Shown here: piece after piece, positions 22,481-47,228 of the stretch
Layout: the number at the start of each line of letters is the position of its first letter
How positions within the stretch are numbered: the first letter of the stretch is position 1
Source: a virus
Lineage: Duplodnaviria; Heunggongvirae; Uroviricota; Caudoviricetes
Direction: 5' to 3' (one strand)
Virus record (IMG/VR): IMGVR_UViG_3300018414_000006
Span: 64,001-119,460 of that record
DNA: 55,460 nt
The notes under the pieces: model-generated
What the model was told of the DNA's origin: nothing
Databases searched by the model: none
The model's input: the letters and a program-made list of their open reading frames with translations, nothing else
Made by a program: the position numbers and the translations under genes

Positions 22481-22492
22481 TGTAATTTTATT
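22481..22492 (+). promoter_or_regulatory. Late-promoter motif TGTAATTTTATT
   Basis: At the start of the 300-nt intergenic region before gene 22760. Confidence 0.5.
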
Positions 22493-22537
22493 GCAGCAAG
22501 TTTAAAGCAATAATCAAATATCTTTTCTGAACAACCT

Positions 22538-22735
22538 TCAAGACCTTCTCGTTGTCTATAAAACGAGCTTGAGAATTAATTCTCTACTAGCAGTATTGAT
22601 TAGCAGTGCCCAAACAGAATTCTTAGATGTATTGATAATCGATAAGATTTTTGTTTCCCGTAACAGGGAAATAAAAAATGGTGAGAGCATTCTCTCACCC
22701 TGCTGTAGCGAAGGTTCCTATAGGAACAATTTTTT
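22538..22735 (+). ncRNA. Candidate structured leader or small RNA (tandem hairpins)
   Basis: Inverted repeats at 22538-22573, 22571-22584, 22621-22647, 22654-22671, 22680-22699 and 22714-22727; the last is followed by T6. Confidence 0.45.
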
Positions 22736-22759
22736 AATTTTCATGAAAAGGGTAATATC

Positions 22760-45303: not shown

Positions 45304-46482
45304 TTAAAACAAACTGGACAGTGCATTTCCAATACTGTTAGATATGCTTGAAAATCCAGTAGAGGCCAGATTTTTTACTGCTTGAACTCCAGAGTTAATA
45401 GCTCCAGTGAGTACATTGGAAACTGGATTATTAACAATTGCTTGTGTAAGATCTTCAGGAACACTGAGAATATTTATGAAAACATCACCAACACTAAACG
45501 TTACATGATGGCTCAGTGCATTTGATGTATTACTATCTAACTGAAAAGAATCAACAGTTTCGGGCCAACATTCAATGTATTCCAAAATACACAGTGCATT
45601 TTTTGAAGGATCAAGTAAGTATACATAAATTGGAAGTTTATAATCCGAAGGTTTGCCCCAACTACCACCTAACTGTGCCTGATTATTAGCACTAAATGGG
45701 GCCAACACTGCATTATTCCATGCTTGCAAATATGTTATAGAAATATTTGATACATCTGCATATAATCGCAATGTTAAAGAATCAATTTCGTAATTAGATG
45801 GATAATGCCTACTTCGCCCTTCTCTGAATATTGACATTTTGGAATATCTTCGAAAAGGACAAATAGCTTCTTCTACATAGTACCAGGGCAGTTGCGCTAC
45901 AGACGGGTTTGCTACAGCACCTCCCATAACCGAAGAAAGTGCATTGCCAATGACGTTACTGCTAGCCGATGCTATAGAAGATAGTATTCCATTACCTATG
46001 TTAGCAATTGTAGAAACTCCAGAAGAAGGGGTACTCAGATTACTGATGGGCGTAATAACTGGTAGCTGTGCATACCATAAAAAAGACAGCAAAGGATCAG
46101 CTCTTGCTTGAGCACCAGCAAGCGCATCACCTGGATTAACACCACCTGAACTACTGAAACTTGCAAAGTATCCTGGAGAAGCTAATGAAAGTCCGGAAGT
46201 TGCACCTACGCCCCCTAAAGCATTTCCCAGAATGTTAGCAGGATTCAACGCACTTAAAGCACCACTGACATTACCAGATACAACATCCTTGACGGCTGTT
46301 ATAGCAGCGCCAGCAGTACTTTTTACAGTATTAGAAACTACATTAGCCGCAGTGTTGGCAATAGTATTTTTGGCATTGGCTACTACTGTTTGAACACCTG
46401 TATTAATCGCAGATTTATCTCCACTTATATTATTTGTGACCTGACTGGTAGCTTGACTTACGATATCCTGTAAAAAACTCAT
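45304..46482 (-). CDS. Tail tube-like / gp54-like protein with low-complexity N-terminus
   Basis: YVEEAICPF, LTLRLYAD, LEYIECWPETV tube-fold motifs. ATG 46482 follows SD AAGGA. Confidence 0.6.
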   Translation of the reverse strand: MSFLQDIVSQATSQVTNNISGDKSAINTGVQTVVANAKNTIANTAANVVSNTVKSTAGAAITAVKDVVSGNVSGALSALNPANILGNALGGVGATSGLSLASPGYFASFSSSGGVNPGDALAGAQARADPLLSFLWYAQLPVITPISNLSTPSSGVSTIANIGNGILSSIASASSNVIGNALSSVMGGAVANPSVAQLPWYYVEEAICPFRRYSKMSIFREGRSRHYPSNYEIDSLTLRLYADVSNISITYLQAWNNAVLAPFSANNQAQLGGSWGKPSDYKLPIYVYLLDPSKNALCILEYIECWPETVDSFQLDSNTSNALSHHVTFSVGDVFINILSVPEDLTQAIVNNPVSNVLTGAINSGVQAVKNLASTGFSSISNSIGNALSSLF

Positions 46483-46505
46483 GAGGTGTCCTTTTAATGA
46501 CACTG

Positions 46506-46627
46506 AAAAAGAAACGACATGCGGAATACCCCGATTCCTTGATCTGACAGATCAGTCGTTTCAAAACAGACAGTTCAGACCACCCTTCCCATGGAAACAT
46601 CAATCTGAATAATGCCGGCTCGGGGTA
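46506..46627 (-). ncRNA. Candidate cis-regulatory RNA (attenuator/riboswitch-like leader) or small RNA
   Basis: 8-bp closing helix 46527-46534/46620-46627 enclosing three hairpins; alternative 8-bp helix 46511-46518/46555-46562 followed by U5. G-U pairs favour the minus strand. Confidence 0.55.
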
Positions 46628-46635
46628 AATTAATC

Positions 46636-46647
46636 TTAAAAATTGCA
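46636..46647 (-). promoter_or_regulatory. Late-promoter motif variant TGCAATTTTTAA
   Basis: Ends 8 nt before the first helix of the structured leader. Confidence 0.45.
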
Positions 46648-46727
46648 ATGAATGTTAATTTAACATAAAGTAATAACGTTTGAAATTTATTCAAAAACAA
46701 TTGACACTCACAATGCAATCTTGCATT

Positions 46728-47228
46728 CTAGGATCCCCAGATAAGTGCAAGAGCTGGATCTACAGGAATATAGCCGTTTGGGGCTGGCCTACGAATTGTG
46801 TCAATGCTCATGTTAATTCGTCCTTGTGGTGGCAGATAATATCCAGTATTGATAGAATCTGAAGGTACTGTCAGATTTTTGTGAGCAACTGCTACATAAA
46901 GATCGCGCAGAATAGTTTCTTCCGACCATTCTGGAACATCTGGATATTTATTACCAGAACGATATACTAACCATAATCGTGCAAGTTGCAAGGTCGGAAC
47001 TCTACGCATACCAAGCCCAGAAAGCAGAGGATCAATAAGATCAGAATCACAACACACAACAATTTCATCCACTGCATTTCTGCCTACTGCTTGAAGTGCC
47101 AAGCAATCTCTCAATAGCTGACCTTCTATTGCAGGAGTATATTTGTCAAACACAACTCCCGCATATTTAATTCTACTCATCTGAGGCTGTTCTGTTAAAG
47201 CCGGCCTGGAAACATAGGTAGAAGTCAC
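46728..47228 (-). CDS. Hypothetical protein
   Basis: 166-aa ORF in the portal operon. Confidence 0.6.
   Translation of the reverse strand: MTSTYVSRPALTEQPQMSRIKYAGVVFDKYTPAIEGQLLRDCLALQAVGRNAVDEIVVCCDSDLIDPLLSGLGMRRVPTLQLARLWLVYRSGNKYPDVPEWSEETILRDLYVAVAHKNLTVPSDSINTGYYLPPQGRINMSIDTIRRPAPNGYIPVDPALALIWGS

Follow-up and report, generated by a model that had tools for sequence, protein, structure and literature searches.

The late leader of phage lambda consists of the PR' promoter, the 6S RNA and the terminator tR', which is read through by Q. To our knowledge, 6S RNA has neither a conserved purine loop nor a conserved pseudoknot between 5' end and terminator loop. In phage HK022, the put RNA provides RNA-dependent processive antitermination. 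The T4 gene 32 leader pseudoknot and the hairpins of T4 genes 25 and 38 set translation and need no terminator, and the loops of the phi29 pRNA pair between molecules, with the RNA binding the portal. Pseudoknotted aptamers are found in several transcriptional riboswitches, including the fluoride, ZTP and preQ1-I types (e.g., PMC11077080), and a bipartite system of conjugative elements, ConAn, is described as another case of processive antitermination (PMC8191782).

The DNA analyzed here (the window, 55,460 nt) makes up the final 55 kb of an IMG/VR record of 119 kb, the completeness of which is put at ~50%. All genes from 46482 down to 31478 share one strand and form a ~15-kb baseplate operon, the products of which include matches to PF12322 (T4_baseplate) and PF04717 (Phage_base_V), i.e., baseplate and spike domains. 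The first of them is a tube-like protein with 46% identity to BcepSauron gp255 ('tail tube initiator'), 43% to phiRSL1 ORF208 and 32% to a Motura 'baseplate protein', and since these are its best named relatives the source phage belongs to the phiRSL1-like jumbo myophages, as an uncultured and AT-richer member. The same strand carries, further upstream, the genes for the portal, a 96-aa protein and a 166-aa protein. The RNA described here, RNA1, lies in the 245-nt spacer (46483-46727) between the last of these and the operon. When the minus strand was read directly, all the helices that an earlier note on this DNA had drawn were located, and the features of the region are as follows.

46728..47228, minus: 166-aa gene 5' of the leader; its stop lies 80 nt before the promoter motif
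46635..46648, minus: promoter-like motif with the sequence TTGCAATTTTTAAG, a variant form of the recurring G[CT]AATTTTAT[AT]G / CAATTTnATAG
46620..46627, minus: P1a, the 5' strand of pseudoknot helix P1, UACCCCGA; pairs with P1b
46574..46609, minus: hairpin H1, UUCAGAU (46609-46603) / GUCUGAA (46580-46574), with a 22-nt loop
46581..46590, minus: conserved motif GGGAAGGGUG in the H1 loop, stacking directly on the 3' arm of that hairpin
46563..46573, minus: U-rich linker CUGUCUGUUUU from H1 to the terminator; consensus (U)GUUU in alignment A3
46555..46562, minus: 5' arm of the terminator outer stem, GAAACGAC, a covarying stem
46540..46554, minus: small hairpin within the terminator, UGAUCU (46554-46549) / AGAUCA (46545-46540), lineage-specific
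46523..46538, minus: inner hairpin GGAAU/AUUCC, loop CGGGGU
46527..46534, minus: P1b, UCGGGGUA, the core of which is the CGGGGU loop of the inner hairpin
46511..46518, minus: 3' arm of the terminator outer stem, GUCGUUUC; pairs with GAAACGAC
46506..46510, minus: U5 tract directly 3' of the stem, read from the sequence
46486..46503, minus: pre-AUG hairpin GUGUC/GACAC, partly holding the Shine-Dalgarno (SD) sequence (AAAGGA, 46491-46496)
45304..46482, minus: first baseplate-operon gene, tube-like protein (phrog_45, 2.9e-15)

P1 is 8 bp long in the window and starts 7 nt after the end of TTGCAATTTTTAAG; shuffled sequences match its score at P = 0.005. H1 carries an inner pairing (UUUCC/GGAAG), and the only exact copy of GGGAAGGGUG in the 119-kb record is the one in the leader. 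From motif to U tract the RNA measures 129 nt (roughly 46634 to 46506). A terminator-like branched stem with a U tract is indeed present between a recurrent promoter motif and the baseplate operon, which it directly precedes, as had been claimed: the two marks of an intrinsic terminator, a stem and a U tract on the transcribed strand, are seen as an 8-bp stem followed by U5. A simple terminator scanner made no call here, because the loop is branched and 36 nt long. The U tract had been placed ~25 nt before the SD; the actual distance is ~10 nt to the SD and 24 nt to the ATG (46482). Relatives likewise have a small hairpin immediately 5' of the ATG. The window also has an extra 80-nt spacer (46649-46727, minus) between the upstream stop and the motif, which relatives are without; it contains a small hairpin (ATGCAA/TTGCAT) followed 15 nt later by a T5 run.

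A search with the tube-like protein returned 99 homologues, the closest at 58%, and the loci compared comprised 37 from IMG/VR and 23 from metagenomes, plus loci from assemblies. No close relatives were found by a DNA search of phage GenBank records, and a single-protein scan of IMG/VR found no relatives. More than 35 distinct relatives, all of them phiRSL1/BcepSauron-like jumbo phages, have the RNA at the same place and share its plan and helices, so that the conservation in related phages on which the earlier note had staked its proposal was found. The position is constant, between a ~160-aa gene and the gene for the tube-like first baseplate protein, and is invariant though the proteins are only 25-58% identical.

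The plan is the same in almost all relatives. CAATTTnATAG is found 5-15 nt past the stop codon of the upstream gene and is followed by a short 5' segment; next comes a hairpin with a large loop, the 3' side of which reads G(U)GGGAAGGGUG and abuts the 3' arm; a U-rich linker then leads to a GC stem of 7-11 bp around a small hairpin adjoining its 3' arm, and a run of T4-6 terminates the element, with at least four T directly past the stem in the 35 relatives compared. Every one of these parts is present in the window. Members of the family measure 95-198 nt, with a median of 124, when counted from the motif through the U tract, GGGAAGGGUG is found with two changes or fewer in nearly all relatives, and the small hairpin by the 3' arm, with its loop complementary to the 5' end, was seen in the 28 relatives folded as well as in lineages added later. 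Of the three junction arms recognized previously, H1 is conserved and covaries, whereas GUC-GUU/AAC-GAC and UGAUCU/AGAUCA are absent from relatives; at the position of the latter some relatives have a different extra hairpin and most have none. The palindrome GCCGGC, once suggested as a dimerization site, is missing from all relatives and is lineage-specific.

A covariance model, R1, was made from the 3' two thirds of the motif-to-U-tract part (74 positions) and recovers the held-out members L024, L041 and L023. It gives exactly one significant match in this genome (46507-46590, minus, 38 bits, E 3e-7) and a single match apiece in phiRSL1 and in three large metagenomic genomes; the copy in BcepSauron has diverged too far for the model. 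A pattern scan for phages with the window's own P1 sequence gave 11 chance matches, all scoring 14 bits or less with R1. Three carriers of RNA1 can be cultivated: phiRSL1, BcepSauron and Motura. Structure, covariation, strand, a single copy per genome and a fixed position are properties read directly from the family. Searches of Rfam (Rfam 15) gave no match on the window, nothing beyond noise at E<=10 in 46300-46900 and no match on the leader in 15 relatives, ARAGORN predicted no tRNA or tmRNA, and literature searches turned up no description of the element; the earlier view that it belongs to no known riboswitch, tRNA or ribozyme family was upheld by Rfam and ARAGORN. On the comparative evidence RNA1 is a genuine family of structured RNAs, hitherto uncatalogued and restricted to phiRSL1/BcepSauron-like jumbo phages.

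Two other interpretations of its parts were tried and rejected. GGGAAGGGUG was considered as part of a small ORF or as an SD sequence, and there is no conserved start codon downstream of it. In some members the terminator domain resembles a tRNA (7-bp stem, 4-bp stem and UUCGAGU loop), a reading rejected on two grounds, the covariation of that loop with the 5' end and the lack of any ARAGORN prediction.

Lineages differ in several details around the shared plan. In L008, L016, L019 (phiRSL1), L021, L042, L047 and L067 the loop region of H1 has an extra hairpin with covarying arms and an invariant GUUAGGU loop, which turns the H1 loop into a multi-helix junction. L068 (1320-1425) and L045 (1312-1418) keep the motif, P1 (CCTCG/CGAGG), the hairpin and the terminator, and GGGAAGGGUG is missing from the loop; this lineage is abundant, its tube-like protein being listed in 184 blocks of the collection. 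Group I introns (RF00028, 81-84 bits) occur in genes upstream of the leader in L011 (1766-2054) and L021 (539-828). Homing endonuclease genes adjoin the leader in L002 (3267-4004, BcepSauron gp254) and in the upstream regions of L020, L021, L028 and L067; by type they are GIY-YIG (BcepSauron gp254 by eye, L067 by Pfam) or carry HNH-like C/H motifs. They are inserted either in the gap between the upstream gene and RNA1 or in that between the RNA1 terminator and the baseplate gene, and RNA1 is always retained.

Alignment of full-length leaders with MAFFT followed by RNAalifold recovered only five terminator pairs because insert lengths vary, and anchored helix searches with permutation controls (Python) were used instead, together with R1. 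Each of the three helices (P1, H1 and the terminator stem) covaries in 32-36 distinct relatives. The segment that follows the motif can pair with the apical loop of the inner hairpin, and this complementarity is kept as the sequence varies by lineage (P1 5' segment / loop):

many lineages: CTCGAA / TTCGAG
L008, L016, L042, L047: TGGACG / CGTCCA
L021: TGGGCG / CGCCCA
L067: TGAACG / CGTTCA
phiRSL1: TGAGCG / CGCTCA
L032: AGCCCA / TGGGCT
L026: GTCCCAT / GTGGGAC
L041 (closest relative): GTTCGAA / TTCGAAC
BcepSauron: TCCCGTGA / TCGCGGGA
Motura versus L060: GTCAC / GTGAC versus GTCGC / GCGGC
this window: TACCCCGA / TCGGGGTA

When the 31 nt past the motif were compared with the apical loop of the last hairpin in 35 distinct sequences, the sum for own partners was 197.5 against 155.1 +/- 5.7 for permuted ones (z 7.5), and none of 20000 permutations scored as high. 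When the TGGACG subclade was aligned with MAFFT, pairing was seen in 92.9% of P1 cells, with compensatory changes in two pairs, slid controls giving 31-48%; the three unpaired cells represent a one-column misalignment of L021. The arms of H1 covary across 32 relatives (own 7.34, permuted 5.05, z 11.6). For the outer stem, 86.5% of cells are paired and 39 are double-changed, against 14.5 +/- 4.4 in shuffles (0/500 as high), with a covariation score of 0.554 compared to 0.255 in shuffles. Covariation of P1 and of the long-range terminator helix ('fold B'), the check that had been proposed for them, is therefore seen for both in the family. The strand from which the RNA had been drawn is also supported, since the operon strand folds better than its complement in 35/35 family members, by a mean of 8.75 kcal/mol.

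The two helices had been described as belonging to mutually exclusive folds, A (with P1) and B (with the terminator), which does not hold: they share no nucleotides, and both covary. Along the RNA the order is P1a, H1, terminator 5' arm, P1b and terminator 3' arm, that is, A-B-A'-B', and the helices can coexist, P1b being the apical loop of a hairpin that the terminator encloses. Programs limited to nested folds therefore split such a pseudoknot into two 'alternative' folds. GGAAU/AUUCC had further been thought to sequester the 3' strand of P1, and it does overlap the two end pairs of the 8-bp helix, whereas the 6-bp core is free and compatible with both the inner and the outer stem. On comparative grounds, both helices are real and coexist as one pseudoknot ending in a predicted terminator.

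The motif ahead of RNA1 is not confined to this locus. G[CT]AATTTTAT[AT]G recurs 20-45 nt before start codons in this genome, with sites at 756(+), 9359(-), 18302(+), 22482(+), 26202(+), 34250(-) and 50905(-) of the window and at 47122, 56554 and 58804 (+) in genome coordinates. AATTT is invariant in 28/28 orthologous leaders, and in the genomes of five relatives CAATTTnATAG (one mismatch) is ~5x enriched over the reversed pattern (11/2, 13/2, 25/10, 10/2 and 6/2). In phiRSL1 it is found in the spacers ahead of ORF108, ORF129, ORF130 and ORF145, and the genes behind it include replication-type ones (topoisomerase IB, helicase). The earlier description of a 'late-motif variant' is right about a recurrent motif, and the label 'late' is not established, because of these replication-type genes. 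P1a begins 1-7 nt past the motif in most members, and we infer that transcription starts just after the motif; if CAATTT acts as a -10 hexamer, P1a would be close to, or right at, the RNA's 5' end. In Burkholderia phage Matilda, at the counterpart of the BcepSauron gp253-gp254 spacer, an RNA of ~130 nt would start just after CAATTTTATAG. In principle, the recurrent motif might mark a site of RNA processing instead of a promoter. An attempt to place start sites from phiRSL1 gene starts was abandoned, the annotated GTG/TTG starts being too uncertain. Since phiRSL1 has no RNA polymerase gene and is rifampicin-sensitive (PMC5468394), a hairpin with a U tract, the host type of intrinsic termination, is a relevant signal in these phages. 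A second long leader follows the same motif at 22481-22759 (+) of the window (MFE -73.6, z -5.4, no shuffle as good), with a GGUUCC/GGAAC hairpin and T6 ~35 nt upstream of its ATG (22760); it gives no match to R1.

With middling confidence, we propose that RNA1 is a promoter-proximal attenuator gating the 15-kb baseplate operon, its default product being a short RNA and read-through probably depending on a factor that docks on the loop. Host RNA polymerase would start transcription just after the phage-specific promoter motif, and the first nucleotides made (P1a) would pair with the apical loop of the small hairpin inside the branched GC stem; with the U tract following that stem, the whole fold would be a single pseudoknot ending in an intrinsic terminator. 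H1, between P1a and the terminator, would display the conserved purine loop GGGAAGGGUG. By default, a short, end-protected RNA would be released, its 5' end tucked into the terminator loop, and read-through would set, or be gated for, baseplate expression, probably modulated by the factor docking on GGGAAGGGUG. The order of signals is that of a promoter-proximal terminator before an operon (motif 46648-46635, U tract 46510-46506, ATG 46482), and no promoter motif was found between the U tract and the ATG; operon expression would therefore come only by read-through, and it is for this reason that the element is read as an attenuator. Against this reading, only 4 of the 8 outer-stem pairs are G-C in this AT-rich phage, and they enclose a 36-nt branched interior; a weak outer stem with a branched interior makes a poor intrinsic terminator. 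Termination at the U tract and a gating factor are presumed, and the gating step is a conjecture because there is neither a conserved anti-terminator helix nor a candidate binding protein. Quite tentatively, the P1 link and the invariant GGGAAGGGUG loop might together form a sensor, through which a phage or host factor (protein, polymerase or small molecule) would decide between stop and entry, in relatives in series with a second leader element (element 2, see below).

The attenuator proposed here is similar to lambda PR'-6S-tR' in having a constitutive-looking promoter and an intrinsic terminator within about 100-200 nt, with a long morphogenesis operon next; by analogy, its default product would be a short RNA and the operon would need read-through. 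RNA1 differs in heading the baseplate operon only, whereas the lambda leader heads all late genes. It shares with put and ConAn a structured RNA just past the main promoter of a long, terminator-containing operon. There the polymerase is what the RNA acts on, and the terminator is a distinct element, while the fold of RNA1 includes the terminator hairpin; their sequences are not similar to that of RNA1.

RNA1 might instead be a free-standing, trans-acting sRNA with its own promoter and terminator, stabilized by the pairing of its 5' end with the terminator loop, an explanation we regard as unlikely. GGGAAGGGUG would then be a seed or a protein-sponge site, the targets would be in host or phage, and the place before the baseplate operon would merely be inherited gene order. 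The promoter-to-terminator architecture and the size range suit such an RNA, as do the conserved single-stranded loop motif (the putative seed) and the retention of RNA1 where a homing endonuclease gene splits it from the baseplate gene (BcepSauron, L020). However, no convincing GGGAAGGGUG target was found in the 119-kb phage record, where the seven matches at one mismatch or fewer equal the estimated chance number, and the position is invariant among such divergent proteins. Polymerases must also pass the terminator anyway if the operon is to be expressed, there being no promoter after it.

It is rather improbable that RNA1 serves chiefly as a 3' end for the head-completion operon upstream, with the knot shielding that mRNA from exonucleases and insulating the baseplate genes, and the AATTT motif a processing site or an incidental promoter. 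Consistent with this, the motif follows the upstream stop codon so closely in relatives, and the distant lineages L029 and L038 have only a plain hairpin and a T-rich tail at the same place; CAA/UUU within the motif would also fit the loose preference of RNase E. Yet the motif is a recurrent, gene-proximal one that also points at genes without RNA1, its conservation at this locus is stricter than a processing site would require, and in the window it is 80 nt from the stop codon. In sequence terms, the attenuator would look no different from a free-standing sRNA or from a 3' end that stabilizes the upstream operon.

The reading first offered for this leader, a ligand- or protein-controlled switch in which the choice between exclusive folds A and B decides termination, is very unlikely. 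With pseudoknots forbidden the folds are near-isoenergetic, fold B being the RNAfold MFE structure (-36.9 kcal/mol) and fold A the centroid (-35.5), and the conserved nucleotides in loop and junction are aptamer-like. In this phage, moreover, the linker can alternatively pair with the terminator 5' arm (GUC-GUU/AAC-GAC) and so sequester it. That arm is the only true competitor of the terminator 5' arm, however, and it has no counterpart in relatives; across 35 sequences the upstream segment showed no conserved anti-terminator pairing beyond that of permuted controls with either the 5' arm (z 0.65) or the 3' arm (z -2.3). P1, for its part, pairs with the terminator loop and not its arms, so the helices can form together. 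Nor does anything point to a ligand: the fold is conserved and covarying with no feature marking a ligand pocket, the genes downstream encode baseplate and spike proteins and belong to neither metabolism nor transport, and no Rfam riboswitch matches. Like RNA1, known riboswitches of the pseudoknotted kind place a pseudoknot close to an intrinsic terminator within a 5' leader, and their loops contain conserved nucleotides. In them, a pseudoknot strand overlaps or competes with the terminator stem, whereas in RNA1 that strand is the terminator apical loop and there is no conserved competition; RNA1 also precedes structural genes. A ligand riboswitch is unlikely.

Folding energy was dropped as support for any of these structures, shuffles folding equally well: the leader is no more stable than its dinucleotide shuffles (z -0.79; 50/200 shuffles equally good). 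Judged on this single leader sequence, the element is indistinguishable from chance, and the claim stands on comparative evidence only.

Nearly all relatives have a second conserved leader element (element 2) between the RNA1 terminator and the ATG (e.g., L004:2400-2500, L014:2415-2500, L041:2445-2530 and most others), which is absent from the window, where the small SD-holding hairpin directly after the U tract takes its place. In element 2, a strand beginning (U)ACCC has two alternative partners, a proximal one immediately ahead of an invariant GAGGUUCAA (z 11.1) or a distal one some 25-35 nt upstream of the ATG (z 6.9); covariation is also seen for a loop-to-downstream helix (z 8.8). It may be an H-type pseudoknot or a long hairpin, and is a genuine candidate for a two-state element. 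The T4 leaders are similar to the present case in being structured leaders before phage structural or replication genes, and the pre-AUG hairpin, like element 2 in relatives, sits where T4-type translation elements act; RNA1 differs in lying upstream of a terminator-like signal.

Finally, intermolecular pairing of P1a with the terminator loop, by which RNA1 would form rings or chains in assembly in the manner of phi29 pRNA, is barely credible: although the 5-8 nt complement between two exposed segments covaries, the sequence cannot separate cis from trans, the gene lies between portal-side and tail genes, and phi29 pRNA is likewise a phage RNA of about 120-170 nt with a short covarying complement of this kind, pairing within one molecule is simpler, virions of the clade have given no evidence of RNA, the terminator and promoter context suit a regulatory leader, and phi29 pRNA has no terminator-integrated fold and a different genome position.

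Gene regulation in phiRSL1-like jumbo phages is almost unexplored, and according to the cited literature these phages depend on the host polymerase. RNA1 adds a conserved, single-copy RNA family with at least 35 distinct members and compensatory changes, situated at the entrance to the baseplate operon. Its predicted fold is unusual, an intrinsic terminator with its own loop tied to the 5' end of the RNA, and it corrects a tempting misreading, as the folds that appear 'alternative' to a nested-structure predictor are one pseudoknot. If the P1 link controls termination, RNA1 would be a new design among attenuators and antitermination RNAs; if it is a stable small RNA instead, it would be one of few sRNA families conserved across a jumbo-phage clade. 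With three cultivable carriers, the RNA1 family is directly testable.
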